A stretch of 64,000 nt of DNA from an uncultured Acidimicrobiaceae bacterium (lineage in GTDB: Bacteria; Actinomycetota; Acidimicrobiia; Spongiisociales; UBA5794): assembly GCA_964581295.1 (NCBI GenBank), contig CAZONX010000003.1:2406-66405 (forward strand). The letters are read 5' to 3'. Numbering within the stretch: position 1 is the stretch's first letter; each line of letters starts with the position of its first letter. The notes beneath the pieces are model-generated. The model saw only the letters and a list, made by a program, of their open reading frames with translations, ran no database searches and was not told where the DNA came from. Position numbers and translations under genes: made by a program. Shown piece by piece: positions 1,852-61,163 of this stretch.

Positions 1852-2742
1852 TCAGAGCATCGCCAGCGGATCAACCATCGAGCCCGTCGCACCCCGGATC
1901 TTGAGCGGGAGCATCACGAAGAGGAACTCGTACACCTTGTCGCGAGCGATGTCCTCGAGGTAGATGCTCTCAAGGAGGTAGATCCCGTTCTCGATGAGCA
2001 GTTTCGTATGCACCGGCTGCGGGTTCGCAGGCGACCCGCGGTCGGGCGTCGGCATGACCTCATAGGTCTCGGTGTCGGTGCCGGTTGCGACGACACCCTT
2101 CTCCAACAGCCACTCGGCGGCCGAGAGATCGGGCCCGGCCGTCTTGTGTTCTGCCATCGCATCGGCATCGGGCCAGTACTTCAGATACCCGGTGCGAATG
2201 AGCACAACATCCCATGGCCGGACCTCGACACCTTGGGCTTCTGCGATCGCCTGCAACTCGTCTGCACCGACCGGCTCGCTCGATGGGAGAGCGTCGACGC
2301 CGCGGAACGCGGGCGGATCGAGCAGGACGCCCCTCGTGAAGAACGGCGGGAGGTGCGAGGCGTCGCCGACGATCGGTCCGTGGTCCGTGAGGTGCTCGGC
2401 GGTGTTGCCCCCGCCGTACCAGTGGTTGTCGTCCCCGATCGTCATATGACCGAGACCGTCGATGTGCGCCCCGGAATGCGAGCACGCCATCACGTACTCC
2501 GCCATATACCCGAGGCCGACCTCGTTGGGCGGTCCCCACGGCTGCACGTTGCCGGCCTTGATCCCGGGGGGCGTGCGATAGTTCAACACCTGGAACGGGG
2601 GATGGCCGGGGAACAGCGGCATCCCGGTGAAGCGTGGAACCGACAGCGAATAGGAGCGGCCCTCCTTCACCATTTGTGCGGCTTCGACCACCTTGCTGGC
2701 CGGCATGTCTCTCACCGGGCCGACGTGTTGGATCTCGCTCAT
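1852..2742 (-). CDS. cyclase-family protein (kynurenine formamidase-like metal-dependent hydrolase)
   Basis: Putative-cyclase / KynB-like fold motifs (HSGAHIDGLGH…, DHGPIVGD…). Start at MSEIQH (ATG 2742) forms an ATGA overlap with the stop of the upstream Mo-subunit gene (2739). Confidence 0.75.
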   Translation of the reverse strand: MSEIQHVGPVRDMPASKVVEAAQMVKEGRSYSLSVPRFTGMPLFPGHPPFQVLNYRTPPGIKAGNVQPWGPPNEVGLGYMAEYVMACSHSGAHIDGLGHMTIGDDNHWYGGGNTAEHLTDHGPIVGDASHLPPFFTRGVLLDPPAFRGVDALPSSEPVGADELQAIAEAQGVEVRPWDVVLIRTGYLKYWPDADAMAEHKTAGPDLSAAEWLLEKGVVATGTDTETYEVMPTPDRGSPANPQPVHTKLLIENGIYLLESIYLEDIARDKVYEFLFVMLPLKIRGATGSMVDPLAML

Positions 2743-4988: not shown

Positions 4989-5461
4989 TCCTTCCCCACC
5001 TTCGCTGCCGTGAGCACGGCCTCGGTGATCTGGAGATAGCCGGCGCATCGGCAGAGATTCCCACCGAGGGCCTCATGCACGTCGTCGATCGTCGGGTCGG
5101 GATTGCTTTGCAGAAGTGCATGCGCAGACATCAACTGACCCGGGATGCAGAATCCGCACTGCGGCGCACTGAGGTCGAGGAAAGCCTGCTGGAGGGCATT
5201 CAGGTGCCCGTCCGCCGCCAGGCCTTCCACACTCGTCACGTCTCGCCCGTCGATCTCGACGGCGAGCATCAGGCAGGAGTTCATCGGAATGCCATCGACG
5301 ACCACGGTGCACGCACCGCATTCGCCAACGACGCAGCACTCCTTGGTCCCGGTGAGCCCGAGTTGATCGCGCAGAACGTCGAGCAAGGTGTGGTTCGCGG
5401 CGACGTCGAACGCACGATCGCGACCGTTGATGGTTGCTTCGATGTGGACCGTTTCGCTCAT
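4985..5461 (-). CDS. (2Fe-2S)-binding small subunit of Mo-hydroxylase (CoxS/XdhC-like)
   Basis: 158 aa with both [2Fe-2S] cysteine clusters (GTKECCVVGECGACTV… and …CGFCIPGQ…CRCAGY). ATGA overlaps on both sides. Confidence 0.9.
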   Translation of the reverse strand: MSETVHIEATINGRDRAFDVAANHTLLDVLRDQLGLTGTKECCVVGECGACTVVVDGIPMNSCLMLAVEIDGRDVTSVEGLAADGHLNALQQAFLDLSAPQCGFCIPGQLMSAHALLQSNPDPTIDDVHEALGGNLCRCAGYLQITEAVLTAAKVGKE

Positions 5462-6330
5462 GACACTCCTTGCAGTTCTTGCAGGCGCGAAATCGCCCGC
5501 TCCACGGCGCGCGCACCGAGCACCCGCAGCATCGCCCGGCGATAGTCTGGACTCGCGCGCATGGATCGAACCGACGGGCTGGCGTCGGCGAAGATCTCCT
5601 CGAACACCGCAGCCTTGGCGTCGGCAGACGCGTCGGGGTCGGCAAGAACACCGGTGTCGTCCGTTCGCAGCCAGGCACGAGGCCCAACGCTTCCGAAGGC
5701 GACCTGCGTGACGCCCGCATCATCGACCGTGGCTGCAAGCGTGACCGAAGCCAGGTCGGTGCCCTTGCGTCGGGTCATCCTTTCGTACGCGGCGCCGATC
5801 GGGCGCGACGGCACGGTCAATTCGAGGGCGAAACCGATCTCGCCGTCGCGAAGATCGACCGTGCCAGGGCCAACGATGAAGTCGTCGATGGGGACCCTCC
5901 GGAGGCCTTCGGGTCCGGCGGCGATGACGATGGCGTCGTAGGCCAACAGCGGTGGTGCCGTGTCGGCGGCTGGCGATCCGTTGCAGATGTTGCCGAGCAC
6001 CGTGGCTCGATTCCTGATTTGCACCGAACCCACCACCACGGCGGCCTCGACCAGCGCAGGAAAGTGCTGGTTGATCCGCTCATCGACGACGACCTGGGTC
6101 ATGGTGGCCGCAGCGCTGAGCGTCACGGTGTCTCCATCCCAGGCCAACGCCGGATACAACTCGGCGACGCGCTTGAGATCGACCACCACCTTCGGCTGCT
6201 TCCACCGATCCCGCATGGCGATCACCAGATCGGTACCGCCGGCGAGGATCTCGGTCTCCGAGCCGCTTGTAGCGAGCACCTGAAGCGCTTCGTCAAGCGA
6301 CTCAGGACGTTCGTAGGAGAACTCCTTCAT
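5458..6330 (-). CDS. FAD-binding subunit of Mo-hydroxylase (CoxM/XdhB-like, FAD_binding_5 + CO_deh_flav_C)
   Basis: 290 aa, MKEFSYERPESLDEAL…AGGTDLV…RATVLGNICNGSPAADTAPPLLAYDA…. First of the three redox subunits. 21-bp gap to the upstream gene. Confidence 0.85.
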   Translation of the reverse strand: MKEFSYERPESLDEALQVLATSGSETEILAGGTDLVIAMRDRWKQPKVVVDLKRVAELYPALAWDGDTVTLSAAATMTQVVVDERINQHFPALVEAAVVVGSVQIRNRATVLGNICNGSPAADTAPPLLAYDAIVIAAGPEGLRRVPIDDFIVGPGTVDLRDGEIGFALELTVPSRPIGAAYERMTRRKGTDLASVTLAATVDDAGVTQVAFGSVGPRAWLRTDDTGVLADPDASADAKAAVFEEIFADASPSVRSMRASPDYRRAMLRVLGARAVERAISRLQELQGVS

Positions 6331-7369: not shown

Positions 7370-8098
7370 CTAGCCCTCGGCAGCCTCCTCGGAGACCGCC
7401 TCCGAAACCGCTTCGGCAAGGCCTTCGCGCACCTCATCGAGCCCTTCGATTAGGAGGGCCGCCTCGGCCGCATGCGTACGGCTCCGTTCGGCGGCAAGCT
7501 CGGGGTCCTGGTCGCGAATCGCGGCGAGGAGTGGTTCGTGTCGGAGCGAAAGCCAGTGCAGGTCCACACCGGGGGTCGACGCTGTGACGTAGGTTCGCGA
7601 GAACGGCTCGAGCATCGACCACTGGCGTGCCAGAGTCTCGTTGTGCGCGGCGGCAACGATCCGCGCGTGGAACTTCGTGTTGTGGATGGCCTGGTCGTGC
7701 GCGTCGCCGCGAGCAGCGGCCTCTTTCATCGCCACATAGAGGGCTTCAAGATCGGCGATGCACTGTTCGGTTCGCCGCTCAGCCGCCAGCCTTCCGGCCA
7801 GCGCCTCGAGCTCGGCGCGCACCTCGATCGCTTCTGTGAGCTCTTGCCTCGTCGGCTTGCGCACTCGCGCACCCTTGTGGGGCTTCATCTCGACGAAGCC
7901 AAGGATTGCGAGGTCCCGCAGTGCTTCGCGCACCGGTGCCTGGCTGACACCGAGGTCGCGAGCCACCCGGGTCTCGACGATGCGAGACCCGGGCTCCAGC
8001 TCTCCTTCGAGAATCCACGTGAGAATGCGGTCCTTCACCCGCTCGGAGAGAACTTCTCTCTCCATGGGTTCCGGTTGCGTCTCTTGTCGATTCGTCAT
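7370..8098 (-). CDS. GntR-family transcriptional regulator (FadR subfamily, FCD C-terminal domain)
   Basis: N-terminal wHTH (…ETRVARDLGVSQAPVREALRDLAILGFVEMKPHKGARV) plus FCD-type helical effector domain. Start could be 8098 (MTNRQ) or 8065 (MEREV). Confidence 0.85.
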   Translation of the reverse strand: MTNRQETQPEPMEREVLSERVKDRILTWILEGELEPGSRIVETRVARDLGVSQAPVREALRDLAILGFVEMKPHKGARVRKPTRQELTEAIEVRAELEALAGRLAAERRTEQCIADLEALYVAMKEAAARGDAHDQAIHNTKFHARIVAAAHNETLARQWSMLEPFSRTYVTASTPGVDLHWLSLRHEPLLAAIRDQDPELAAERSRTHAAEAALLIEGLDEVREGLAEAVSEAVSEEAAEG

Positions 8099-8134: not shown

Positions 8135-9886
8135 CTAGAGGATCTCGACTACGCCGTTGGTCCCGTCGACCCGCAGGCGGTCGCCAGTCTTGATCTCACG
8201 AGTGGCAACGCCGGTGCCGGTGACGCCGGGAATGCCGAACTCGCGAGCCATGACTGCGGGGTGCGCAACCATGCCGCCGGCATCGCAGACGATGCCGCCG
8301 ATGATGGCGAACAACGGTGTCCACGCCGGGTTCGTCATCTGGCAGACCAGAATGTCGCCGCCCTTGACCTCGTCGAACTCGGCAGGCGAAGAAACGACCT
8401 TCGCCGTGGCTTCGATGACGCCAGGCGACACGCCGATACCTTCGATCCTGCCCTTGGTCTCCGTGTCGAAGTGCAGCTTCTCAGGGAAGCCCCACAGATT
8501 GAGATACGGGAACGCGAGCTGGTCTTCGGTCGCCGTGCCGATGAAGTCCGGCGGGCGGATCTTCTCTTGCTCGGCCCGGGTCGCACGCCGCTCGGCGACA
8601 ATGCTCTTGGCGTCGTAGCCCTCGGGATCACCCATCAAGTAGCGCAGTTCGTTGTAGCGCAAGTAGATCGTGTCGTCCGGCTCGTCCAACGCGCCCATCT
8701 CGACCAGCTTCCGGCCGATGCAGATCAGCACCACCCGAGCGTGCTGGTGCGTGCCCTGGTCGATATAGAAGTGGTGGTCGGGCGTGAGCGGGGCCATCTT
8801 CAGGTTGATCTCATTGGCTGCCTTCAGCGCCTCGAGGGCGTCGCCCTCTTCGATGCCTTCGAGCAACTCAACGGCTGCAGCCTGAATGTCCGTCTCGAGG
8901 TGGGCGACGACCGGCCGGTGGTCATAGTCCGAGTCCAGGTATCCCTTGATCACGTCAAGGACCGGTTCCGGTGTCTCGAATCGCGACGGGTAGATGAACT
9001 CGTGGCTCCACACGGCGTGCCAGCCGAACTCACGCTGGTAGGCCTTCAGGCCCTCGGCGATGAACCGGCGGCCGCGCTCGGTGCCCTCGAGAGCCGCCAA
9101 GATGTCGGCGCCGTTCTCGTTGACGAAGGCCGCCATGAGGACGTCGTCTTCCTTGATCTCGTCCTTCAGCGCCACCAGCAACTCGATCGCGTCCCAGTTG
9201 CGGTCGGCGTAGGAGTTCTGCAATCGGCCGAGGATTTCCTCGTGCTTCTGGGTGATCTCGCCGCCGAGCGCCTCTTCGAGCGTTGCTCGCAGCGCCAGGG
9301 TCGACGACAGCTGGGCGAAGTTGAGCATCCAGTGGATCTTCCAGTGACGATCGAGCATGTCGATCGCGTCCTCGAGGATCACGGCCCACTCCATGAGCGA
9401 GATGTTCTCGTAGTCGTCAATCTTCTCTTCGAGATAGGCGAGGTTTCCCGCCATTTCGGGCACGAGGCGATCCCTCCACCAATCGGGGAAGTTCGCTCCG
9501 TAGACCGGGAGCACGGCGCCGAGATAGGCGCCGATCTTCTCGGCGTAGTCCGGGTCGGCGTCCGTGGGCACCCGGGAGTCGTAGTGGAACCCGAGTTGTT
9601 CGCTGGGCACGGCCATATCCGGGTCCGGCGGGATCGCGGCCGTGAAGAGGTATCCGTTGACGACCTTGCCGACCCAGTCGGTCGCGAACGGCGTGCCGAA
9701 GCGACGGAACATGTGGTCGCACGTGAGCACCCAGTTGCCGATATCGTTGTACATCGGCGAGACGGGGCGCGGGCAGTGCAGGTCGTCGTAGACCCAGAAC
9801 AGCTTCTTTTCCTTCTCCGATTCCCACTCGACCGGGAAGCTCTCGTCTCCGAAGAACTCCGCCACAACCTTGCTGGTATCTACCAT
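8135..9886 (-). CDS. PEP-utilizing-enzyme mobile (phosphohistidine swivel) domain protein with large unknown N-terminal domain; PpsA (phenylphosphate synthase) / rifampin-phosphotransferase-like architecture
   Basis: The C-terminal ~90 aa is the PEP-utilizers phosphohistidine domain (…GGMVAHPAVMAREFGIPGVTGTGVATREIKTGDRLRVDGTNGVVEIL). The N-terminal ~490 aa matches nothing I recognise. No ATP-grasp domain in this protein. Start at MVDTSKVV (ATG 9886) with an AGGAAGGAGA RBS. The track's GTG 9913 is less likely. Confidence 0.7.
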   Translation of the reverse strand: MVDTSKVVAEFFGDESFPVEWESEKEKKLFWVYDDLHCPRPVSPMYNDIGNWVLTCDHMFRRFGTPFATDWVGKVVNGYLFTAAIPPDPDMAVPSEQLGFHYDSRVPTDADPDYAEKIGAYLGAVLPVYGANFPDWWRDRLVPEMAGNLAYLEEKIDDYENISLMEWAVILEDAIDMLDRHWKIHWMLNFAQLSSTLALRATLEEALGGEITQKHEEILGRLQNSYADRNWDAIELLVALKDEIKEDDVLMAAFVNENGADILAALEGTERGRRFIAEGLKAYQREFGWHAVWSHEFIYPSRFETPEPVLDVIKGYLDSDYDHRPVVAHLETDIQAAAVELLEGIEEGDALEALKAANEINLKMAPLTPDHHFYIDQGTHQHARVVLICIGRKLVEMGALDEPDDTIYLRYNELRYLMGDPEGYDAKSIVAERRATRAEQEKIRPPDFIGTATEDQLAFPYLNLWGFPEKLHFDTETKGRIEGIGVSPGVIEATAKVVSSPAEFDEVKGGDILVCQMTNPAWTPLFAIIGGIVCDAGGMVAHPAVMAREFGIPGVTGTGVATREIKTGDRLRVDGTNGVVEIL

Positions 9887-10298: not shown

Positions 10299-12605
10299 TC
10301 AGGTCGAGGGTTTCTCACCCGGCGGTAGGTCGGCCAATGCAGCAAGAACCTTCTCCGGGGTGACCGGCAGATCCCGAATACGAACGCCGATCGCGTCATA
10401 GAGCGCATTGGCGATCGCAGGCGGCGTCGCCGCGGCAGCCGGCTCTCCGACACCCTTGGCACCGAACGGGGCCTCCTCATGCACCGACTCGACGATGATC
10501 GGCACGATTTCCGGGAGATCCTGGATCGTCGCCACCTTGTAGTCGGCGAGGTTGCCGTTCTCGATGCGTCCGTCGCGAATAGAGAAGTGCTCGAGGATCC
10601 CATTTGAGAGGCCCATCACCACACCGCCCTCGATCTGCTGCTCGACCGTCATCGGATTGATGGCCTTGCCGACGTCGGCAGCCGCGGCCACCTTGACCAC
10701 GCTGATCACGCCGGTCTCGATGTCGACCTCGATCTCTGCGGCCTGGGTGCACAGCATCCAGAAGATGCTGCTCATCCACTCCTCACCGGGGTCGGCCTTG
10801 AGCAACGGCGACCGAGCTGACGAGAACCGCGATCCGGCCGTCATCGAGTAGCCCTCCCCCGCGAACTTCGCGAGCAGATCCCCAAGGGTGATCTTGACTT
10901 CATCGTCCAGGTCGTAGATGGAGCCGTTGCGAAGATCCAGGTCCTCCGCATCGACCTCGAGTACCTCGGCGGCCAGGCCCAGGATCTCCTCGCGGATCTC
11001 CGCGCCGGCAGCGACGATGGCGTTGCCCATGTGATAGGTGGTCCGACTCGAAGCGACCGGGCCGTTGTATGGCGTGAGCGCGGTGTCGGTGGCTGGCACC
11101 GACACGTGCTCGAGCGGGACACCAATCGCGTCCGCGGCCATCTGGGCGAGGACGGTGTCCTGCCCTGCGCCGATCTCCGGCGCCGCGCAGATCACCAGCA
11201 CACGACCGTCTTGTTCCATGTTGATCACGACGTTCGAACTCGACGGCGTCATCGTCGGCTTGATCATCGTGGCGATGCCCTTGCCGCGGCGCAGGTGCGG
11301 CGCCGGTTCGCGCTCGACCGATCCCCAGCCGATTTCGGCAGCCGTTCGTTCGATGGTCTCGGTGAGGCCGACGCTGTGCATGATCTGGCCGTTGAGGTAG
11401 GAATCGCCTTCCACGTATCCGTTCTTCAGTCGGATTTCGACCGGATCGAGATTCAGCTGCGCGGCGATCTCGTCCATCTGCGTCTCACACGCCCACGTCA
11501 CTTGGGTCGTGCCGTAACCGCGGTAGGAACCGGTGATCGCCTTGTTGGTGTAGACCTGCCGCGACAGGATTTCGATATTGGGGATGCGATACGGCCCGAC
11601 GATCGTCTGCGAGCCGCGGATGGCGACGCCGACGGTGTAGGCCGTGTAAGCCCCGCTGTCCCAGAGCACTTCGGCGCTCCTGGCGATCATCAGGCCGTCG
11701 CTGTTCACCCCGGTCTTCAGCTTCATGATCGCCGGCACGCGAAGCTGCGAGGCGATGAGGCACTCCTCGCGGGTGAACTCGACGCGGACCGGACGACCGC
11801 CGGAATTGCGCGCCAGGACGACCGCGATGGCCTCGGCGATTGGGACACCCTTGCCACCGAACGACCCACCGACCTGCGCAACGATCAGCCGGACCTGGGT
11901 GCTGGAGACGCCCAACCCTTCTGCGAGCTCGTTGCGGAGCAGGAATGGGCGATCGGTCGATACCCACAGGGTGTAGCCACCCGAACCCGCGTCGTACTCG
12001 GCGATCGCGGTGTGGACCTCGAGTGCGACATGGCTGATCGCGTGCGCCGAGTACTCCCCTTCGACCACCAGATCGGCGGCGGCGAAACCTTCCTCGACAT
12101 CGCCGCGCGAATACCGATAGAGCGTGTTGATATTGGTGTGGGGCACGATCTCATGCCCACCACGCTTGTAGGTGTGGAGATCAGGATGCACGAGTGGCGC
12201 GTCGGGATCGAGGGCGGCGCGCATGTCGACGATCGCCGGCAACTCCTCGTAGTCCACCGCAATGAGGTCGAGCGCCTCCTGTGCCTGCGCCTCGGTGGTC
12301 GCCGCGACCGCAACGACCGGTTCGCCGACATAGCGGACGCGGTCGATCGCGAGAAACGGTTGATCCTTGATCGCAGATCCGAACAACAGCGGGAAGTCGT
12401 TTCCCGTGACGACTGCCTCCACTCCCGGAGCCGACCGGGCGCGCGCTACGTCGATCGACACGATCCTGGCGTGTGGGTGTGGGCTTCGTAGAACCGCGCC
12501 GTGCAACATGCCAGGCATGGACAGGTCGACGGCGTAGACCGCGCTGCCTGTCACCTTGTCGACTGAGTCAACGCGTGGTGCCCGCGTGCCTACATACGTC
12601 GTCAT
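10299..12605 (-). CDS. molybdopterin-dependent hydroxylase large subunit, paralog 2 (XDH/aldehyde oxidase family)
   Basis: 768 aa, same domain architecture as 2739..4988 (…VVGGSFGGKG…, YRGYGTTQ, …AAPEIGAGQDTVLAQMAADAIGVP…). Start at MTTYVGT overlapping the stop of the 2Fe-2S gene (ATGA). Confidence 0.9.
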   Translation of the reverse strand: MTTYVGTRAPRVDSVDKVTGSAVYAVDLSMPGMLHGAVLRSPHPHARIVSIDVARARSAPGVEAVVTGNDFPLLFGSAIKDQPFLAIDRVRYVGEPVVAVAATTEAQAQEALDLIAVDYEELPAIVDMRAALDPDAPLVHPDLHTYKRGGHEIVPHTNINTLYRYSRGDVEEGFAAADLVVEGEYSAHAISHVALEVHTAIAEYDAGSGGYTLWVSTDRPFLLRNELAEGLGVSSTQVRLIVAQVGGSFGGKGVPIAEAIAVVLARNSGGRPVRVEFTREECLIASQLRVPAIMKLKTGVNSDGLMIARSAEVLWDSGAYTAYTVGVAIRGSQTIVGPYRIPNIEILSRQVYTNKAITGSYRGYGTTQVTWACETQMDEIAAQLNLDPVEIRLKNGYVEGDSYLNGQIMHSVGLTETIERTAAEIGWGSVEREPAPHLRRGKGIATMIKPTMTPSSSNVVINMEQDGRVLVICAAPEIGAGQDTVLAQMAADAIGVPLEHVSVPATDTALTPYNGPVASSRTTYHMGNAIVAAGAEIREEILGLAAEVLEVDAEDLDLRNGSIYDLDDEVKITLGDLLAKFAGEGYSMTAGSRFSSARSPLLKADPGEEWMSSIFWMLCTQAAEIEVDIETGVISVVKVAAAADVGKAINPMTVEQQIEGGVVMGLSNGILEHFSIRDGRIENGNLADYKVATIQDLPEIVPIIVESVHEEAPFGAKGVGEPAAAATPPAIANALYDAIGVRIRDLPVTPEKVLAALADLPPGEKPST

Positions 12606-13069
12606 CTGCGGACTCCTTTGATCTCTGCGACCGCTTCGAGGATCTTGGGATAGGCGCCGCATCGGCAGAGGATGCCGCTGAGCGCCTTCTTCACGTCCTC
12701 GATCTCCGGTTCATCGTCCCTTCTGAACATAGCAGTGGCTGTCAAGACCATGGCAGGGGTGCAGAACCCGCATTGGAACGCCCCGGTGTCGATGAATGCC
12801 TGCTGCACGTCGTTGAGTTCGCCGTCCTCGGCGAGGCCCTCCACGGTCTCGATGCTGGCACCGTCCGCGTCGCCGGCCAACACCAGGCACGAGGTGACCG
12901 GTTCACCGTCCGCGAGCACCACGCAGGTGCCGCACTCGCCGACTCCGCAGCCTTCCTTCGTCCCGGTGAGGAACACCTGCTCGCGTAGGACCTCGAGAAG
13001 AGTGAGGCGCGGATCGGTCGTGAGTTGGCGGGAAACTCCGTTCACCGTGACGTCGATAGTGATCGTCAT
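12602..13069 (-). CDS. (2Fe-2S)-binding small subunit, paralog 2
   Basis: MTITIDVTVNGV… with GTKEGCGVGECGTCVV and CGFCTPAM…CRCGAY cysteine clusters. True start at M82 of the track ORF (ATG 13069), ATGA-overlapping the FAD-subunit stop. Confidence 0.9.
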   Translation of the reverse strand: MTITIDVTVNGVSRQLTTDPRLTLLEVLREQVFLTGTKEGCGVGECGTCVVLADGEPVTSCLVLAGDADGASIETVEGLAEDGELNDVQQAFIDTGAFQCGFCTPAMVLTATAMFRRDDEPEIEDVKKALSGILCRCGAYPKILEAVAEIKGVRR

Positions 13070-13956
13070 GCCGCCACCTCCACACCCGCGGATTGCACGG
13101 CGGCACGAAGGGCCCGCAACGTGAGCACCCTCGCAAGCGTCGTGCGATACGACGCGCTGGCGCGCATGTCGCCGATCGGCTTCGCCTCGCCGGCGGCGGA
13201 CTGGGCGACAGCGGCGAGTGCCGCCTCCACTGGAATCTCCGAGCGAAGCAGCGCTTCGCTGGCAACCGCGCGAAATGGGGTCGGCCCGAGCGAGGCAAGG
13301 GCGATCATGCATTCGAGGACGCGGCCGTCGACGCCGAGAACCACACTCGCCGATACCCCTGCAAGAGCGATGTCGGTCCCGCTCCCCCGCTTGCCCAGCT
13401 TCACGTGCGCCGAGCCGAAACCCGCAGGCGGATCGGGGAGGAAGATCGACGTGATGATGTCGGACGACGCAAGCGTCGTCGCTCCCGGGCCCGAGTACAG
13501 ATCCTCCACCAAATCATCGCGAGCGCCGTCACGCCCCTCGATGGTGGCGACCGCCCGATGGACGATCAGCGCCGGTCCGAGATCGGATGCCGGCGACGCG
13601 CGACCCACATTGCCGCCGATCGTCGCCAGCGCCCGCACCGGCGGCGACGCAAGGATGGACGCGGCCTGAGCGAGTCCGGGGCAGCTCTCCTGCACGAGCG
13701 ATGACTGCTCGACGAGGGTCACCTTGGTCAGGGCTCCGATACGGATGCCTCCCTCGGCCGCTTCGATTCCGGTGAGGCCTGGCACGCGTTTGAGGTTCAC
13801 AACCGTCGACGGACGCATCCGGCCCGTCTTCATGTCGACGATGAGATCGGTCCCGCCGGCGAGCACGCGGGCGTCGTCCGGAGCGTCGGCGAGAACGTCG
13901 ATCGCTTCAGCCAGCGACGTCGGTTCGTGGTAGTCGAATGCGCGAAGTCGCTTCAC
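13066..13956 (-). CDS. FAD-binding subunit of Mo-hydroxylase, paralog 2 (CoxM-like)
   Basis: 296 aa, MKRLRAFDYHEPTSLAEAIDVLA…AGGTDLIVDMK…ATIGGNVGRASPASDLGPALIV…. Confidence 0.85.
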   Translation of the reverse strand: MKRLRAFDYHEPTSLAEAIDVLADAPDDARVLAGGTDLIVDMKTGRMRPSTVVNLKRVPGLTGIEAAEGGIRIGALTKVTLVEQSSLVQESCPGLAQAASILASPPVRALATIGGNVGRASPASDLGPALIVHRAVATIEGRDGARDDLVEDLYSGPGATTLASSDIITSIFLPDPPAGFGSAHVKLGKRGSGTDIALAGVSASVVLGVDGRVLECMIALASLGPTPFRAVASEALLRSEIPVEAALAAVAQSAAGEAKPIGDMRASASYRTTLARVLTLRALRAAVQSAGVEVAA

Positions 13957-31856: not shown

Positions 31857-33125
31857 CTACGGCGGGTCGCGGCTCGTGACGTAGGTGTGGCCGAGAGCGC
31901 TGGTCCAATGGTGGCTGCCATCGGGGAGCATCCGGTAGCTCCAGCCGGCTTGGTGCTTGATGCAGTGGTCGCGCCGGCAGAGGGGGTCGCCGTTGGCTTC
32001 CGTGGTCTCTCCCCCTTCGGCGTACGACACCCGGTGATCGAAATCGGAGCCGACCGCGGGCACACGACAGCCGGGGAAGACACAGACGGGACTGCGTGCT
32101 TCGACCGCGCGGCGGGTGGCTGCCGACGGTCGGCGGCGGGTGATATCGGTGTAGACGGGTTGGCCGGTGGCGGGGTCGGTGACGGTGTAGCGCCACTCGG
32201 CGTCGGGTTCACACACGGCGACGTTGCGGGCGATATCCGCGATGACGGGCCCGTAGCCGGCCAACTCGCCGGGTCGGTTGTTCAAATCGGCGAGCGTGTC
32301 GAGGTCGACTCGGATGTCGACCACACCGCGCCCGGTGCCGGTGTGGTTCGTGCCGCACAGCAGGTCGAGGTAGACGTCGGCACGGAGCTGGTCCATGGTG
32401 CGTGCCTCTCCCCCGCTCCGCAGGGATCGGGCGATCTGGTTGATTCGGTTCGTTGCGGCTGAGACCCGATCGGGGGGCAGGTCCACACCGGTGAGGTTCG
32501 CCGCCCCGTCGTCGGTAGGTTCCGCGATCACGCGACGTTGGTCGATGGCGTCGTCGTAGCGGCGCCCGGCATCATCCGGATCGACCTCAACACAGAGCCG
32601 GCGTAGCCGTGCCCGTAGCTGGCCCGTCGTCAACTCCGGCGCCTCATCGGCCACCCGATCGACCACGCGCCGCGCCGCTGCATCGTCGAGGTGCTCAGTG
32701 CCAGAGATCAACACCCGCGCCCTGCGAGCGTCGAGGCTCCCCGACGCCAACATCGCATGCACCTTTGGCAAGCGAGAACGCAACTCCAACGCGGTAGCGA
32801 GTTCAACATCGGCGCCCCGCCGCGTCAGATGCAACGCGGCGCGAATCTCCGCAGCCGCGGACTCCGCGGCATCCCAATGCGGAGAGTCGTTGTGCTCGTC
32901 GAGCGCATCGACCACCGCTGCCATGTCCTCATACAACAACGCCGTGTAGTGCGAGATCAGGCGCTGATGCGCCCGCAACACCACGACCCGGTCATAGCCG
33001 GAGATGCGCCCCACGTCGATATGGAACACAATCGCCGCCAACTCAGGCCCGGGCGGGACCTCATCAAGACCCTGCGGCACCCACGGAGCATCCTCATCGG
33101 CAGCAACATCACACAAATCCAGCAT
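31857..33125 (-). CDS. DUF222 + HNH endonuclease domain protein (REP13E12-like)
   Basis: C-terminal HNH motif (…CVFPGCRVPAVGSDFDHRVSYAEGGETTEANGDPLCRRDHCIKHQAGW…). N-terminal DUF222-like helical region. Start uncertain (33125 or 33173). Confidence 0.75.
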   Translation of the reverse strand: MLDLCDVAADEDAPWVPQGLDEVPPGPELAAIVFHIDVGRISGYDRVVVLRAHQRLISHYTALLYEDMAAVVDALDEHNDSPHWDAAESAAAEIRAALHLTRRGADVELATALELRSRLPKVHAMLASGSLDARRARVLISGTEHLDDAAARRVVDRVADEAPELTTGQLRARLRRLCVEVDPDDAGRRYDDAIDQRRVIAEPTDDGAANLTGVDLPPDRVSAATNRINQIARSLRSGGEARTMDQLRADVYLDLLCGTNHTGTGRGVVDIRVDLDTLADLNNRPGELAGYGPVIADIARNVAVCEPDAEWRYTVTDPATGQPVYTDITRRRPSAATRRAVEARSPVCVFPGCRVPAVGSDFDHRVSYAEGGETTEANGDPLCRRDHCIKHQAGWSYRMLPDGSHHWTSALGHTYVTSRDPP

Positions 33126-33235
33126 GGAGACAACGTACCGCCCCGATGTGACACAAAACATCCCGCCAAACACCCAACTCGGCCATCAGCGACGTACTGT
33201 CCCACAAGCGAAATGCCGATACCTATGGTTGGTCG

Positions 33236-34483
33236 ATGCGCCGCTTCAGCTTTCTCCTCGCCGCAATCGCCATCGCTGGTGCCGGGTGTGTGAACGGGTC
33301 GGAGGAGGCGTCGACCACGACCACGGCAGCCACGACCACCACCATGGCACCTTCACCGGTCGACGACCGGCTCGTGATCCTGGCCGCGGACGCAACGGTC
33401 GTGGTGCTCGATGACACGCTCGAGGAGATCACCTCGATCGCGCCACCCGAGGGTTCGCGGTACCGCCAACCGATCTGGTTCGACACCGAAACGATCGTCT
33501 TCTCCGAGGAGCTCGCCGACGGCAGCGGCGCCCTCATCGCGGCCGACGCCACGACCGGGACCATCTCCTGGCGGGTGGAGCTGTCGAGTTCTCCGTTCTA
33601 CTTCGACCAATCACCCGACGGGTCGGCAACGACATCGCTGCGCAACAACAACGCGGAGGGTGGCCTGATTGCCGAACTGGTCTCGCGAGACGGCGAAGTG
33701 ACCCCACTGAATGACCGATCCCCGTTCTACTCGGCGTGGTCTCCCGACGGTTCGGCGTTGGCCACCCATGTTGGTCAGCAGACGCTCGCCGTGGTCGAAG
33801 ACGGAGTGGTCGAGGCGATCTCGGATTCGACCGGTAGCTTCCAGGCCCCATCGTGGACGCCGGACGGCCTATTCACGCTTCGGTCGAGCGAGCAGTCGCA
33901 GACCCTCGCCGTTTGGGACGGTTCGGCGTTCACCGACCTTGCTCGTGTCGCGGGGCCCGTCCAGTTCGTGGCCAGCGGCGATCGGGTGGCCATCCAATCG
34001 ACATCTGCGGACGGGACAACCGGCATCGCCGCCGCATTTCGAGCACAAGTGGTCCCGAGGGTCCCGGGCGGGCGCCTTGTCGTGTTTGACACGAGCTCGG
34101 GCTCGTTCGCAACAGTGTCCGAGCGGTTCGCGCCGTTCTTCCAATGGGATCCGACCGGTGAACGGCTGCTCTATGCGGCATTCGACGAGCAACCTTCGGT
34201 GGATGTCACATGGGCGATCTGGGAAGGCGGGGAGGCAACCGAGTACGGCCCGTTCACGCCACAGCCGGAGTGGTTTGGCGAAGTCGTGCCGTTCTTCGAC
34301 CAGTACGCCCACTCGTTGTCGTATTGGTCCGCCTCTGGTGATGCCTTCGCGTATCCGGCGGTCGGAGACGCCGGGCCCATCGTGAAAGTGCAGCCGACGG
34401 ACGGATCAGCAACGAGCACCGTCGACGACGCGGTCTGGGTCTCCTGGAGCCCACCAATCGGCCAGGCACTGTTGGTGCCGTAG
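33236..34483 (+). CDS. secreted/lipoprotein beta-propeller protein (TolB/PD40-like repeats)
   Basis: Signal peptide MRRFSFLLAAIAIAGAGC, Thr-rich linker, then repeated W/F-x-PDGS motifs (WSPDGSALA, WTPDGLFT, WDPTGERL, SWSP). Confidence 0.6.
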   Translation: MRRFSFLLAAIAIAGAGCVNGSEEASTTTTAATTTTMAPSPVDDRLVILAADATVVVLDDTLEEITSIAPPEGSRYRQPIWFDTETIVFSEELADGSGALIAADATTGTISWRVELSSSPFYFDQSPDGSATTSLRNNNAEGGLIAELVSRDGEVTPLNDRSPFYSAWSPDGSALATHVGQQTLAVVEDGVVEAISDSTGSFQAPSWTPDGLFTLRSSEQSQTLAVWDGSAFTDLARVAGPVQFVASGDRVAIQSTSADGTTGIAAAFRAQVVPRVPGGRLVVFDTSSGSFATVSERFAPFFQWDPTGERLLYAAFDEQPSVDVTWAIWEGGEATEYGPFTPQPEWFGEVVPFFDQYAHSLSYWSASGDAFAYPAVGDAGPIVKVQPTDGSATSTVDDAVWVSWSPPIGQALLVP

Positions 34484-34485
34484 AT

Positions 34486-35160
34486 TCAGCCTGAATCCCG
34501 CATGATTCGATACATCGTCGCCGTGTCCTCGATGTAGCGATTCATGAGCGCCCCAAAGCGATCGGCCTCGTCGGTGGCACCGGTGCGGAGTCCCATCGCC
34601 TGCGAGGCGAACTTGGCTCCCCGGAAGTAGGCGCGCAGGTCGCCGAATGGCATTGCACTCGGACCCGGCTCGGGGAATCCCGGCGTAGGCGGAGGCTGCT
34701 CCACAGGGGAGAGACCGAGAAGGCGCAGCGCGTCGAGCGCCGCATCCTCGGAAGGTCGGTCGGCGAAGTCCCGACTCACCAGGCGCTCGATCTCGTCGCC
34801 GTTCGGATCGATCACCACGGTTGCGGGGATTGCCACACCACGGGGGTCGGCTTCATTCCTCAGGCCGTAGGGGCCAATCGCTCGGCTCCGATCGGGATCC
34901 GACAGCATTGGAAACGGCAGGTTCAGCTTCTCGACCATAGCGGCGTGCTGGCCGGGCGAGTCGACGTCGATCGCGATGACCACCGCCCCCGCCTCCACAA
35001 ACTCACGATGCCGCAATGCCACGCTGACCAGCTGGCCGTTGCAGTACGGTCACCAATCGCCCCGGAGGAACAACACGACCACCCCATGCTTGCGATGGTC
35101 CGACAGCGACCATGGTTCGCCCGCCTGGTCGAGCAGCGTGAAGTCGTGCGCCGGTTTCAT
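34486..35160 (-). CDS. peroxiredoxin-like (AhpC/TSA-redoxin family) protein with in-frame TGA at the redox-active Cys position: candidate selenoprotein (or TGA-disrupted pseudogene)
   Basis: My own translation of the minus strand from ATG 35160 gives MKPAHDFTLLDQAGEPWSLSDHRKHGVVVLFLRGDW-TGA-PYCNGQLVSVALRHREFVEAGAVVIAIDV…. This continues in frame into track ORF 34486..35022. The TGA (35050-35052) replaces the first Cys of the W-C-P-x-C redoxin motif. A SECIS-like hairpin follows (separate feature). Confidence 0.55.
35010..35045 (-). ncRNA. bacterial SECIS-like stem-loop immediately 3' of the in-frame UGA (apical loop GGUC)
   Basis: mRNA: UGA-CCGUACUGCAACG-GCCAGC-UGGUC-AGC(G)UGGC-AUUGC. A 7-bp stem (GCCAGC… / …AGCGUGGC with one bulged G) has a GGUC apical loop starting 20 nt after the UGA. 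A 4-bp lower stem (GCAA/UUGC) is also possible. Confidence 0.45.
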
Positions 35161-35309: not shown

Positions 35310-36418
35310 GTGACCGACCTCCAGCGTCTGATCTCCGGGTTCTACTTCGTCTACTACGCATCCGCAGCGGTCCTCATCCCTAACCTGCCGTTGATCTTCG
35401 ACGATGCCGGCTATAGCGGGAGCCAGATCGGCTGGCTGCTGGCCCTTCCTCCGGTGATGTCGATCGTCGCGGCACCAACCTGGGGCGCACTCGCCGACGC
35501 GACCGGTCGCGGCCGCACGCTTCTCGCGATCGCTCTCATTGGCGCCGGCGCCTCCGCCCTGGCGCTCGGGGTGAGTTCGACCTACATGGCAACCGTCGCC
35601 GTCATGGTCGTGTTCGCCCTCACGCTCGCACCGGTGGTGCCGTTCACCGATGCGGCGTCCATCGAAGCCATTGACGACAGCAGCCGGTACGGGAGACTGC
35701 GTCTCTGGGGGGCAGTCGGATGGGCCATCGACCGCACGAGCCTCGCCCTGGCCCTGTGCTGTTCGCCGCAGGCATGGTGATCCTCCTCGCCATGACTCGG
35801 CCGATGCCAATGGCCAGCCGCCACCCCCGCCTTGCCGGGGCGCTGGGTCGAGCCCTCTCGAACTCGAGAGCGTGGGCTCCGCTTCTCGGCGGTGCCCTCG
35901 TCGCCGGCATCACCGCGGGAACGATCATCGGCTACCTCTTCCTCCCCCTTCGATCGCTCGGCGCATCCGCATTGACGATGGGGCTGGCGCTCGTGATCGC
36001 CACGGCCAGCGAGATCGTCGCGTTTTCGATGGCCGATCGCGTCATTCGCCGGCTGGGGATCGGTAGAACGCTGCTGCTCGGGATCGGTGCGGGAGTTGTC
36101 CGCCTGTTGATCTTTGGCTTGGTCCCAACAATCGGATGGGCGCTGGTAACCCAGTTGCTGCACGGCTTCACCTTCTCTCTCCCCCTCTCTGCGGGGGTGA
36201 TGGGCGCAGCGAAGCTCTCTCCGAAAGGGCTCGGTACCACCGGCCAAGGCGTCTTCTCCGCTGTCTTTCTCGGTCTCGGACCAACCGTCGGGGTGATCCT
36301 GGCCGGCTACCTGCTCGGCCAGACGTCCGAGCAGACAATGATGCTCACGATGGCCATCGTCGTGCTGGTCGCGGGAGCGATCGTCGCTCTCCCGTTGCTG
36401 CGCTCGAGCGAACTCTGA
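35310..36418 (+). pseudogene. MFS transporter split by a -1 frameshift near 35750 (pseudogene or sequencing error)
   Basis: Track ORFs 35310..35780 (N-terminal 5-6 TM) and 35720..36418 (C-terminal 6 TM) are the two halves of one MFS protein in different frames. Joining at …SLALAL|VLFAAGMVILLAM… restores a plausible TM6. Confidence 0.55.
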
Positions 36419-57338: not shown

Positions 57339-57950
57339 TCATACGGCCACACCCAGCTCCCTGAGCGAGGTGCGCAATTGATCGGCGTTCTTGAAGTGGA
57401 TTGTTTGGATACCGGCCCGGTCTGCACATTCCAGGTTGAGTTCTCGGTCGTCGATGAACACGTACTGCTCGGGGCGGTGCTGGGTGATGTCGACGGCGAG
57501 GCGAAAGATGTGCTCTTCGGGTTTCTTGATTCCGAGGTAGCACGAAGACATGAACACTGAGAAGTGCTCTCGCAATCCGAATGTCTCGATCCGGTGGTCG
57601 TTCAGCTCTCTCGACTCGTTGTTCAGCGTTGCGAGCACGTATTCACCTGAGGCCGTGAGGTCGGCGAGTAGCGCCAGCGACTCCGGCATCGCCTCGGACT
57701 GGCCTTTCATGAAATCGATGAACTCGCCTTCGGTGAACGGCCGCTCTCGGTAGAAGACCGTCCGACGCAGGTACTCCGTGATGGTGAGTTTCCCGGTCTC
57801 GAAGTCCGGGGCAACGAACTCGTGTCGGTCCTGGAAGTCCTCCCAATCGAGATCGAACCGTTGGCAAGCCAGGCGTCGTGCTTCGCGGTCCCAGCCGTTC
57901 GTGAGGAGTACGCCTCCCACGTCGAAGAGCAGCACCTTGACATCAGGCAT
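57339..57950 (-). CDS. HAD-superfamily hydrolase (phosphatase, HAD-IA-like)
   Basis: N-terminal DxG motif (LLFDVGGVL), C-terminal FIDDRELNLECA (motif IV). Confidence 0.75.
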   Translation of the reverse strand: MPDVKVLLFDVGGVLLTNGWDREARRLACQRFDLDWEDFQDRHEFVAPDFETGKLTITEYLRRTVFYRERPFTEGEFIDFMKGQSEAMPESLALLADLTASGEYVLATLNNESRELNDHRIETFGLREHFSVFMSSCYLGIKKPEEHIFRLAVDITQHRPEQYVFIDDRELNLECADRAGIQTIHFKNADQLRTSLRELGVAV

Positions 57951-60687
57951 TCAGCACCTCCTCGAGCACGGCCAGTCCCCTGGCGGGGTCGTCGCTCAGG
58001 TTCACGCGCAGCACCCGACGTTCACGGGCAGTCAGCGCCTGATAGTCGCCGACCGCCTGCGCAACAATGAGCTCGCCGAACGTGTAGTCGGTACCGGGCA
58101 CTTCGAGGTCATCCGGTGTGTCATCCACGAGCTGGAGGAACATGCCACTGTTGGGGCCGCCCTTATGGAACTGGCCGGTCGAGTGCAGGAAGCGAGGACC
58201 GTAGCCGACCGTCGTCGCGACATGCAGTCGATCCCGCAGACCTAGTCGGATCCTCTGGAGGGCCTCGGTCGTTGGGCTATCGGGTCGGAGGTATGCCTGT
58301 ATCGACACATAGTCACCCGGGTGCGCTTCCTCCAGCCAATCAAGAACCGCATTGTTGAGTACGTCCTGCTCGTGGACGTCTACCTCCTCGAGGCCGTCTG
58401 TATCGAGGTCTCCTGCCATCGCGCGACGTGCGAGTTCCTTGGCGTGCTGGACGTCGGGCTGGTTGAACGGGTGGATGCCCATGGCGGCGCTCGCGGCAGC
58501 GACCGCGAGCTCGGCACGGAAGATCTCCGCTCCCATGTCCTCTCTCTCGTAGAGGCGAATGCGAGCAACGGGGCAACCCGAGGCCTCGAGAGCATCAACC
58601 TGCGCCGACTGCTCGTCATCGTGGTCACCAACGTATGAAAGGTAGACAAAGAAGCGATCGTCGCCGTAGACGTCGGGCGGGCCGACCGGCTCATCGGCTA
58701 CGGGGAGGATGCCGGCGTCGTCCTTGCCGGTGCTCTCGGCGACGAGCTGCTCCAACCAACTGGGGAAGGCGGCGAGGGACGGGGAGACCAGGAACGTCAC
58801 CTTGTCGACTCCGTCGAGCGCAAGTTCGCCGAGTGCTGCTCCAAGCCGAAGCGCAGGACTGTAGGGCTCGGGGACACAGACCGCCGATGCTTCCGCCATG
58901 CGCCATGCGCGATCAGTGAGCCGATGAACATCGACGCCGATCAGGGCTGCCGGCACAAGCCCGAATGCGGTCAGCGCGGAATAGCGCCCGCCGACATCGG
59001 GGGTGGCTTCGATCACTCCGCGGAAGCTGTGCTCCCTGGCGAGGTCGATCAATGAGGTTCCCGGGTCGGTGATTGCGATGAAGTGATCGCCGGGACGATT
59101 GGTGACAGCAGATACTTGATCCCAGAAGTAGCGGAAGAACGAGAGTGGCTCGATCGTGTCGCCCGACTTGCTGGCGACGACGAACAGGGTCGTTGCCGGA
59201 TCGATGAGGTCGTGTATTGCCCGTACGGCTCCGGGGTGGGTGCTGTCGAGTGTGATGAGTTCGGGATAGCCGGATCGATTGCCGAAGGTGCGTTGGTAGA
59301 CCTCCGGGGCAAGACTCGACCCACCCATGCCGAGGAGGACAACGCGTTCGATTCCGTCGCGCCGTACCTGTTCGGCAAGCGCGACGTAGTCGTCGAGGAC
59401 TTCCTGCATGGTTTCGGGAAGGGTGAGCCAGCCGAGCCGGTCGACGATCTCCGGTTGAGGCTGCTCGCTCCACAAACGGTGGTCCTTGGACCAGAGTCCA
59501 AGTGAGAACCCGGTCCGGGTCCAGTCTTCCAGCCGGTCCTGGACGGCTGAGCCATACGACCCGAGGCTGAGCGTCTGATCGTTGGGGATCTGGCCGCGCA
59601 ACTTGGAGCTCTTCTCATGCAGAGCGTGCAGGAGTTGGTGGAACGACTCAGTGAATGCCGCGAGACCCTGGTCTTGGAGATCGTCGGTGATGTCTTGAAG
59701 ATCCATGCCTAGGGCGGCAAGGCTCGCGAGCGCGATGTCGGCATCTGCGACGTCTTCGGTAAGCGTCGATCCGTGCGGCAAGCCGTGGTGCTGGAACGCT
59801 GCCAAGGTTGCCGGGGGAACGGTATTAACGGTGTTGGGACCAACCAACTCCTCGACGTACAGGACGTCCGAGTACGAGGGATTCTTCGTTCCGGTGCTCG
59901 CCCACAACACACGCTGGGGTCGACCGCCGCGGGAGCGGAGGGCGTCGAATCCGGGACCTTCGAAGAGTTCCTGATAGCGGCGGTAGGCCACCTTGGCGTT
60001 CGCCACCGCGATCTTTCCCTTCAGGTCGAGCGCTGCGGCGCTGCCGATGGCCTCCAACTGGCGGTCCACGGCGGTGTCGACACGGCTCACGAAGAACGAG
60101 GCGACCGAGGCGACTCGGGACGGGTCGGCAGCGCGTTCGAGACCGCGGAGGTAGGCACCAGCGACCTGCTCGTAGTGCTCGAGCGAGAACAGGAGTGTCA
60201 CATTGACGTTGATGCCTTCAGCGATCAGCTGTTCGACGGCGGATATTCCCTCGGTGGTCGCCGGTACCTTGATCATGAGATTGGGCCGGTCGACGACACG
60301 CCACAGGCGCCTGGCCTCCTCAACGGTCGCTTCGGTCTCCCGAGCAAGGTCCGGTGACACTTCGAGACTGACGTAGCCGTCTGCGCCGTCGGTAGCGTCG
60401 TAGACAGGTCGCAGTGTGTCCGCTGCTCGTTGAATGTCGTCGACGGCAATGCGGTCGAAGAGGCTCGAGGGTGCGATGCAGGCGTCGGCCTCGATGTAGC
60501 GGGCGAGGTCGGCGTCGTAGTCCTGGCTTCCGGCGATCGCCTTCTCGAAGATGGACGGGTTGCTTGTGACGCCACGGATGCCCTGGCCGATGAGGCGATC
60601 GAGTTCGCCGCTGCTGAGGAGTTCGCGGCGGATGTAGTCGAGCCAGATGGACTGGCCGGCGTCTTGGAGTGCCGTGATCGGATTCAT
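57943..60687 (-). CDS. bifunctional transaldolase / glucose-6-phosphate isomerase fusion
   Basis: 914 aa from [11 protein letters not shown] (RBS GAAGGAGAC). N-terminal ~360 aa is transaldolase (…[12 protein letters not shown]…). C-terminal ~550 aa is a PGI/SIS domain (…[15 protein letters not shown]…). The upstream part of the track ORF is non-coding. Confidence 0.85.
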
Positions 60688-61163
60688 GCTTGTGTCTCCT
60701 TCTTCGAGTCGTGTTGTCCTGTCTCTATCGCCCGCACCTTGGCGAGGCGTCGGAGGTGGCGTTCTTCGCCTGAGAAGACTGCGTTGCTGAACGCCGAGGC
60801 CAACTCCCTGGCGACCGCCTGGCCGATCACGCGGCCGCCAAGTACAAGGACGTTCATGTCGTCGTGTTCGACCCCTTGCCGGGCCGAGTAGGTGTCGTGA
60901 GCCAAGCCGGCACGGATCCCTGTGAGCTTGTTCGCCGCGACGGAAGCACCGACACCGCTGCCACACACGATGATGCCGCGGTCGGCTCTGCCATCGAGGA
61001 CCGCTCTGCCTACGGCCTCGGCGAAGTCGGGATAGTCGACCGGCTCGGGACCGTGTGTTCCAAGGTCGACGATGACGTGACCCTGCCCATCGAGGAGAGC
61101 GATGAGGTCGTCCTTGATCTCATAGCCGGCATGGTCTGCGCCGAGGGCGAAGCGCATCGTCAC
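60684..61163 (-). CDS. rpiB: ribose-5-phosphate isomerase B
   Basis: [16 protein letters not shown]…[19 protein letters not shown] overlaps on both sides. Confidence 0.85.

Follow-up and report, generated by a model that had tools for sequence, protein, structure and literature searches.

Does a TGA codon at the catalytic position of a redox motif end a gene, or is it read as selenocysteine (Sec)? The question is raised by a locus in a 64,000 bp stretch of contig CAZONX010000003.1 from an uncultured Acidimicrobiaceae bacterium, here referred to as the window. A first-pass annotation of the minus strand at 34486-35160 had described a peroxiredoxin-like (Prx-like) gene whose frame runs through a TGA at the first Cys of a W-C-P-x-C motif. 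We analyzed this gene, its orthologs and the RNA downstream of the UGA. In our reading, 34486-35160 is a single intact gene encoding a cytoplasmic selenoprotein of 224 residues, with the UGA of codon 37 decoded as Sec, and we put the probability of this reading at roughly 0.88.

A single reading frame with a conserved TGA

Translation of the minus strand from the ATG at 35160-35158 to the stop TGA at 34488-34486 gave a single frame of 224 codons with an in-frame TGA at 35050-35052, which confirmed the proposed read-through frame. The predicted protein starts with MKPAHDFTLLDQAGEPWSLSDHRKHGVVVLFLRGDW (MKPAHDF...LFLRGDW), is interrupted by the TGA and continues with PYCNGQLVSVALRH... in frame up to the terminal TGA (34486-34488). 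An in-frame TAG is located four codons 5' of the ATG, and among the orthologs the modal distance from the first start to the TGA was 35-36 codons. Codon 37, the putative Sec codon (U37), occupies the first position of the motif W-U-P-Y-C. The codon of Cys40, the putative resolving partner of U37, is a TGC at 35041-35043. All further features of the gene given below are located on the minus strand as well.

The mechanical list of open reading frames (ORFs) contained only 34486-35022 for this locus, an ORF of 178 aa with a GTG start that is without the entire active-site motif. The loss amounts to 46 codons (224 minus 178) and not to the 57 codons counted in the first-pass annotation.

The ortholog set comprised 80 loci from species-representative genomes, almost all of them metagenome-assembled genomes of Acidimicrobiia, with 48-79% identity; together with the window 81 sequences were compared. 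TGA was present at the codon in 80/80 orthologous loci and thus in 81/81 sequences, and a Cys form at the position of U37 was not found among the 80 orthologs. The TGA is surrounded by the invariant motif R-G-D-W-U-x-Y-C-x-G-Q-L-x-S. More distant homologs were collected by an exhaustive search of cluster representatives. In 53 of the 56 that cover the motif, Cys was found at the position of U37 (e.g. P0125, P0134 and P0141), as in the sequence YRGDW-C-PYCNGQL, and at least six of these distant Cys forms have the C-terminal extension described below in common with the TGA-containing genes. The comparison of orthologs suggested with the first-pass annotation was hereby answered: the orthologs carry TGA instead of a sense Cys codon, and Cys is found in the distant homologs.

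Across the 81 sequences, the ratio of nonsynonymous to synonymous variation (pN/pS) of the 31 codons upstream of the TGA was 0.32, with a pS of 0.66. Downstream of the TGA it was 0.46 in the rest of the domain and 0.55 in the C-terminal part. The low upstream ratio indicates that this segment is translated in the proposed frame and is under purifying selection. Other disabling mutations, which the first-pass annotation had named as a sign of decay, were absent from the gene. By published criteria (PMC1088965), a bacterial selenoprotein is recognised by an in-frame TGA that is conserved, by Sec/Cys pairs and by a stem-loop downstream, and each of these was found for this gene.

In a separate lineage, the distant redoxin homolog P0241 (L090, 26-679, plus strand), located on a metagenome contig of 42% GC content, was found to carry a TGA at codon 47. 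This TGA is the first position of a CxxC motif (YRGHW-U-PFC) and had been given as W in the gene call.

The RNA element downstream of the UGA

All mRNA offsets given here are relative to the U of the UGA. Downstream of this codon, the transcript reads CCGUACUGCAACG GCCAGCU GGUC AGC(G)UGGC AUUGCGG. Its minimum free energy structure (RNAfold) contained an upper stem of 7 bp, in which one nucleotide (G) is bulged out on the 3' arm, capped by the loop GGUC. The loop occupies offsets 23-26, its first base lying 20 nt downstream of the last base of the UGA. This hairpin (GCCAGCU-GGUC-AGC(G)UGGC, here named register A) is our candidate for the upper part of a selenocysteine insertion sequence (SECIS) and spans 35018-35036, with the bulge at 35022 and the loop at 35026-35029. 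In the window RNAfold extended the element to 35011-35044 by a lower stem of 6 bp (CUGCAA/UUGCGG, offsets 8-13 with 36-41). The lower stem (offsets 9-13 with 36-40) was rejected as a conserved feature, its three inner pairs being present in only 30-45% of the sequences.

The evidence for the upper hairpin comes from the synonymous sites. A zone of suppressed synonymous variation extends over codons +3 to +10 (35020-35043) and coincides exactly with the hairpin. Synonymous variation was 0.37-0.39 in this zone, which is the minimum of 144 sliding windows with a median of 1.05, and pS was 0.245 compared to approximately 0.65 elsewhere. Frozen codons were GGC for Gly (75/81), CAG for Gln (81/81), GTC for Val (73/73) and AGC for Ser (79/81), and the next codon, for Leu or Val, had G as third base (offset 32) in 79/81 sequences. 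The same amino acids use all their codons elsewhere in the gene. By comparison, any of the four bases (G, C, U or A) may occupy the bulge, and past the stem the first codon position is unconstrained once more. The pairs of register A were kept across the 81 sequences with wobble changes only. A stem-loop right after the UGA whose small apical loop includes a G, as described for bacterial selenoprotein genes (PMC1088965), was hence present in all orthologs. The hairpin-forming sequence, synonymous sites included, is therefore conserved in the TGA-containing orthologs, a point on which the first-pass annotation had made its proposal depend.

That annotation had described the 7-bp stem, the bulged G and the GGUC 20 nt after the UGA correctly. 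The additional likeness in the bulge to the SECIS of E. coli fdhF did not hold, and the spacing is close but not identical. Both elements are stem-loops within the ORF with a GGUC apical tetraloop. However, the loop starts at offset 23 here and at offset 21 in fdhF, as confirmed in the sequence under the annotated fdhF gene, and the bulged base of fdhF is a U in the 5' arm, whereas the bulge of the present hairpin is on the 3' arm and variable in its base. The 5'-arm bulged U of the fdhF SECIS is needed for the binding of SelB.

Several results weigh against the hairpin as a SECIS. Compensatory pair changes in the stem were not found among the 81 sequences and shuffle controls were not exceeded; the lack of covariation is due to the stem being almost invariant. 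The hairpin energy corresponded to z = -0.55, with 52/200 dinucleotide shuffles folding equally well in RNAfold. Thermodynamic stability, being no better than that of shuffled sequences, was dropped as evidence. The Rfam SECIS models, which had been recommended as a check, gave no match in the whole window at gathering thresholds, and a search of 34960-35080 at E values up to 10 returned only a spurious miRNA match and no SECIS. Rfam covers the SECIS elements of bacteria only poorly (bioRxiv 10.64898/2026.04.03.716425). The element remains a candidate SECIS that is backed by conservation and not by stability or covariation.

Decoding of the UGA is most likely directed by a stem-loop that immediately follows it within the coding sequence, and the 7-bp GGUC hairpin is the best candidate. 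In analogy to SelB and the SECIS of E. coli, the hairpin would recruit SelB with Sec-tRNA(Sec) to the ribosome, and the terminal UGA of the gene, which is without such an element, would be read as stop.

A second TGA-interrupted gene

All loci were scanned for in-frame TGA codons with a GGUC-loop hairpin downstream. A second gene of approximately 97 codons was found in the loci L036 (7186-7518, minus strand, TGA at 7390-7392) and L043 (minus strand, TGA at 9223-9225). Its peptide is conserved across the TGA at codon 30 (...DFIxPVG-U-GKPAEVSVDTNT...) and shows the motif PVG-U-GKP. The TGA was kept in 8/8 further metagenome copies (L081-L088). The protein matched NCBIfam NF041239, the 'CC/Se motif family (seleno)protein', from end to end but weakly (21.8 bits, below the cut-off of 40), and the gene is here referred to as the CC/Se gene.

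Its hairpin, GGUGUC-GGUC-GACACC, has an unrelated 6-bp stem without a bulge, yet its loop is again GGUC and begins at offset 23 as well. Since the bulge is absent here, the bulge in the hairpin of the Prx-like gene is probably no recognition feature, which adds to the differences from fdhF. The CC/Se gene divergently adjoins the TGA-containing Prx-like gene in L036, L043 and 6/8 metagenome contigs. Two conserved TGA-interrupted genes side by side in the clade fit a working Sec system. A systematic search of the loci for other conserved in-frame TGAs yielded only the Prx-like gene, frame shadows and gene junctions.

Two pairing registers of the candidate SECIS

The RNAalifold consensus was not register A but a shorter overlapping hairpin of 4 bp, here named register B (GGCC-AGCU-GGUC, 35026-35037), with the loop AGCU at offsets 19-22. 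The two registers are mutually exclusive. Constrained folding of the main group, to which the window belongs, gave register A as the more stable one in 70/73 sequences with a mean of -13.8 kcal/mol compared to -9.8 kcal/mol for B. In the window itself both were nearly isoenergetic when other pairs were allowed (-16.4 kcal/mol for A and -16.0 kcal/mol for B). This near-equality speaks, together with the consensus structure, against register A and keeps B a live alternative.

A different picture was obtained for a subclade of eight loci (L033, L049, L058, L059, L064, L071, L076 and L080), in which register B was more stable in 8/8 cases. Here, linked changes at offsets 21 and 25 turned CAG CUG GUC into CAG UUG GCC (Val to Ala). 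This alters the loop of register A from GGUC to GGCC and weakens that register, and GGCC-AGUU-GGCC is the stable fold. In four of the eight loci the register A stem is additionally mismatched at its base, namely by C17-U33 in L059, L071 and L080 and by C18-C32 in L058. From the predicted folds, the subclade may have switched its SECIS register.

One could accordingly propose that the protein is a selenoprotein as outlined above and that the functional SECIS is register B and not the hairpin with the GGUC loop. Besides the RNAalifold consensus and the energies in the window, this proposal would gain from the perfect GGCC/GGCC pairing in the subclade and from P0241 of the 42% GC lineage, where a strong 6-bp hairpin was found in register B with an AGUU loop at offsets 19-22. 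Register B could optionally be extended by the pairs G10-C29 and C11-G28. However, in the main group it consists of 4 bp only, a G-U pair included, and it leaves the synonymous constraint at offset 32 unexplained. We would rather favour register A for the group of the window, because only A explains the constraint on this G, because it presents GGUC as does fdhF of E. coli and because the second selenoprotein candidate of the lineage has the same loop and spacing. Register B as the functional element is in our opinion unlikely.

Fold and active site of the protein

With U replaced by C, the protein matched the Pfam family AhpC-TSA (PF00578) at 1.5e-30 (106.1 bits, gathering score 26) over residues 2-121 (34798-35157), in line with the initial description as a redoxin/AhpC-TSA gene. 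The AlphaFold 2 model of the ortholog P0057 (predicted local distance difference test, pLDDT, 92; predicted template modelling score, pTM, 0.86) consisted of a thioredoxin fold with two long helices C-terminal to it, and Foldseek matches agreed with the thioredoxin-fold domain. The fold begins at residue 2, and the N-terminus is without a hydrophobic stretch, signal peptide or membrane anchor; the protein is thus presumably cytoplasmic.

The C-terminal extension (residues ~146-224, 34489-34725) contains no known domain. It consists of a Pro-rich linker and two helices, which span residues 170-190 and 196-223 of the P0057 model (pLDDT approximately 90). It has no Pfam match and lies outside every PDB match, these covering about 147 aligned columns. 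Y178-x-R-G and R192 are conserved within the extension.

The closest solved structures in Foldseek were BCP, PrxQ and AhpE proteins (3hjp, 5epf, 1xxu and 2cx3; TM-score ~0.85 on the target over ~147 residues, root mean square deviation 1.6-2.5 A), with ResA also among the matches. In the alignment of the 81 sequences, R33, U37 and C40 were invariant (81/81), P112 was present in 79/81 and C40 was the only conserved Cys column. The codon of Pro112 is located at 34825-34827. When aligned to ResA (3c71) and to 4nmu, U37 and C40 fell on the two cysteines of WCxxC, C40 on the second one, and Pro112 fell on the cis-Pro of the LPTT loop. In the alignment to BCP of A. pernix, the Ser/Thr of PxxxT/SxxC was matched by U37, the peroxidatic Cys by C40 and the position of the catalytic Arg by Pro112. 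The segment FFPAAFSPVC of this BCP corresponds to FLRGDWUPYC here, so that Pro is replaced by Arg33 and Ser/Thr by Sec37.

Judged from these alignments, the active site is a CxxC-type thiol-disulfide centre with a predicted Sec nucleophile on a Prx-like scaffold. W-U37-P-Y-C40 is placed at the start of helix 1 opposite the conserved Pro112, as in a centre of the ResA/TlpA type. The selenolate of U37 would attack an oxidised substrate, for instance a disulfide or a sulfenic acid and possibly a peroxide. The intermediate would then be resolved by C40 to an internal selenenylsulfide that a thioredoxin-type reductant may recycle.

A true peroxidase, i.e. a selenium-dependent peroxiredoxin with Sec or Cys40 as the peroxidatic residue, would be another interpretation of the same fold. 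BCP, PrxQ and AhpE are among the best Pfam, PDB and NCBIfam matches and C40 is aligned with the peroxidatic Cys. Moreover, Sec reacts fast with peroxides, as in GPx. The peroxiredoxin signature itself, however, is missing: the Pro and the Thr/Ser in front of the peroxidatic Cys are replaced by Arg33 and U37, and Pro112 stands at the position of the catalytic Arg. WCxxC and the cis-Pro match ResA at a similar E value. We therefore consider a peroxidase improbable and prefer a thiol-disulfide oxidoreductase.

Relation to known redoxins and selenoproteins

A predicted selenoprotein family that combines a PF00578 domain with a UxxC motif has been described (PMC2398784 Table 2; PMC9312934), and the assignment of the gene to this established Prx-like family in the first-pass annotation is supported by the presence of both features. 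As in the Prx-like thiol:disulfide oxidoreductase selenoproteins, whose function is a predicted one, an AhpC/TSA domain with Sec as the first residue of UxxC is found together with Cys homologs and a stem-loop in the ORF. The family corresponds to 'Prx-like 1' of the Sargasso Sea and Global Ocean Sampling (GOS) selenoproteomes with WP_010940744.1 as reference, and the likeness is drawn here by family definition. The Acidimicrobiia clade differs from it in an unannotated C-terminal extension of approximately 80 residues and in Sec being fixed in 81/81 sequences.

The ResA/TlpA/CcmG proteins (B. subtilis ResA, PDB 1st9 and 3c71) have the same fold, with W-C-x-x-C in place of W-U-P-Y-C and a loop LPTT in place of IPAT. 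While WCxxC and the cis-Pro loop characteristic of ResA/TlpA were recovered, an N-terminal anchor and a sufficient family score were not. ResA/TlpA proteins are anchored in the membrane, extracytoplasmic and of the Cys type, whereas the protein described here is without an anchor, carries Sec and additional helices and shares only ~22% identity. From BCP, PrxQ and AhpE it is distinguished by the replacement of the catalytic Pro, Thr and Arg described above.

A point against our reading is that no NCBIfam model reached its cut-off. The values were 43 of 260 bits for PrxQ, 39.6 of 170 for ResA, 38.5 of 270 for PrxU (NF040737) and 34.8 of 120 for the SelL-related redox protein (NF040769). The latter two, curated models of selenoprotein-related redoxins, show weak local similarity in the N-terminal thioredoxin fold. 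PrxU is a TxxU peroxiredoxin with Sec at the other position, and with these scores the protein belongs to neither of the two families.

Annotation of the family in databases

With the full-length protein as query, hundreds of homologs were found in databases. Nearly all of them were approximately 178-180 aa in size with 79% query coverage, and they are thus truncated at the same point as the ORF in the window. The truncation, by which the active site is lost, affects essentially every database entry, including the NCBI records named "redoxin domain-containing protein". That no NCBIfam model reaches its cut-off explains this systematic mis-annotation.

Only two entries, P0001 and P0057 (JGI), were "full-length". 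Both read RGDW-W-PYC, with TGA called as Trp, and the call of P0001 also passes the true terminal TGA, resulting in 320 aa. Because P0001 runs through the real terminal TGA, these Trp calls are gene-calling artefacts. Together with P0241 (ENA) they represent calls of the code-4 type in which TGA is translated as Trp. Such 'W' calls at CxxC positions could serve as minable markers of missed selenoproteins.

Sec machinery and readings without selenium

The search for the Sec machinery in the vicinity of the gene was negative throughout. A tRNA-Sec was detected by ARAGORN neither in the window nor in the 80 loci. A motif scan for SelA, SelB and SelD and a tblastn search with E. coli SelD (query sequence checked against PDB 3u0o) likewise returned no match in the related loci, which total 1.22 Mb. 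Pfam analysis of the ~40 ORFs of the window revealed no sel genes, and selA, selB, selD and tRNA-Sec were also absent from ~2.7 kb of extra flank. Furthermore, a comparison of the neighbours of the Prx-like orthologs found none to be conserved and suggested no substrate. All this counts against our reading. The absence of sel genes from the window, the flank and the related loci shows only that the machinery is unlinked to the gene.

For members of the class the machinery is on record: selA, selB, selC and selD were reported for 84/84 complete genomes of Actinomarina, which belongs to the order Actinomarinales of the class Acidimicrobiia (bioRxiv 10.64898/2026.04.03.716425). Beyond this preprint, Sec use in Acidimicrobiia is almost absent from the open literature. 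The carriers of the gene are probably selenium users.

If selenium were not involved, one of the standard amino acids Trp, Gly and Cys would have to be inserted at the UGA, by a reassigned code or by SECIS-independent near-cognate read-through. The negative searches for the Sec machinery would agree with this, and the calls of P0001, P0057 and P0241 do give W at the TGA. However, TGA is the commonest stop codon of the window (24/40 genes) and the true stop in 54/81 orthologs, which excludes a reassigned genetic code, and this variant was rejected. The W of P0001 is an artefact, as set out above. Additionally, the site is that of the nucleophilic Cys of CxxC, at which the homologs have Cys, the RNA after the UGA is under constraint and the Sec machinery occurs in the class. 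A standard amino acid at codon 37 is hence very unlikely.

The idea of a nonsense-mutated pseudogene, in which a former Cys codon (TGC or TGT) became TGA and the gene is dead or truncated, was rejected as practically negligible on the comparative data: although the adjoining MFS transporter is frameshifted and at least one disrupted gene is thus present in the assembly or genome, the same TGA is kept in all 80 diverged orthologs without any Cys form, the 31 upstream codons are still under purifying selection (pN/pS 0.32), the truncated ORF would be without the whole redox motif and the divergence of the 80 loci rules out copies of a single contaminant.

Neighbouring genes and other features of the window

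The MFS transporter gene is located directly upstream of the Prx-like gene (35310-36418, plus strand) and is split across two frames. The ORF 35310-35780 corresponds to positions 4-145 of the MFS_1_like profile and the ORF 35720-36418 to positions 218-368. The split represents a frameshift, due to either a true pseudogene or an assembly error.

On the other side, the ORF 33236-34483 (415 aa) matched no Pfam family and gave faint hints of a beta-propeller. It is followed by a gene for a protein with DUF222 and an HNH endonuclease (31857-33173, minus strand), two genes away from the Prx-like gene. This family is typical of Actinobacteria and is possibly a mobile or selfish element.

Two sets of molybdenum hydroxylases of the xanthine-dehydrogenase/CO-dehydrogenase type (MoCoBD large and FAD-binding subunits) are encoded at 2739-6330 and 10299-13956, both on the minus strand. 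Some enzymes of this type carry a labile selenium cofactor; there was no sign of this for the sets of the window. A long ORF at 57943-60966 (minus strand) fuses transaldolase and phosphoglucose isomerase and is part of a pentose-phosphate cluster with transketolase and G6PD. The transketolase has an identical counterpart on the ENA contig ERZ25083855:NODE_177, from which it follows that the window derives from a metagenome assembly.

Meaning for the family and the class

With its uncharacterised helical extension, the gene is a clade-wide addition to an established selenoprotein family. It does not represent a novel type of system, and it extends a known family without altering how selenoproteins are understood at present. 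The 81 aligned sequences and the companion CC/Se gene offer a clean SECIS candidate, specific to the lineage, from which a bacterial SECIS model could be built. How such elements evolve under coding constraint can be tested on the difference between registers A and B among clades.

Taken as a whole, the picture of a redoxin with Sec fixed throughout the Acidimicrobiia (81/81 species-level genomes), an undescribed two-helix domain, a lineage-typical minimal GGUC SECIS at 23 nt and a register switch in one subclade is a tentative one, to which we would give slightly less than an even chance. If it is true, a major actinobacterial class of soil and marine habitats would generally decode Sec, a capacity that has gone largely unreported and that every standard annotation pipeline would systematically miss.

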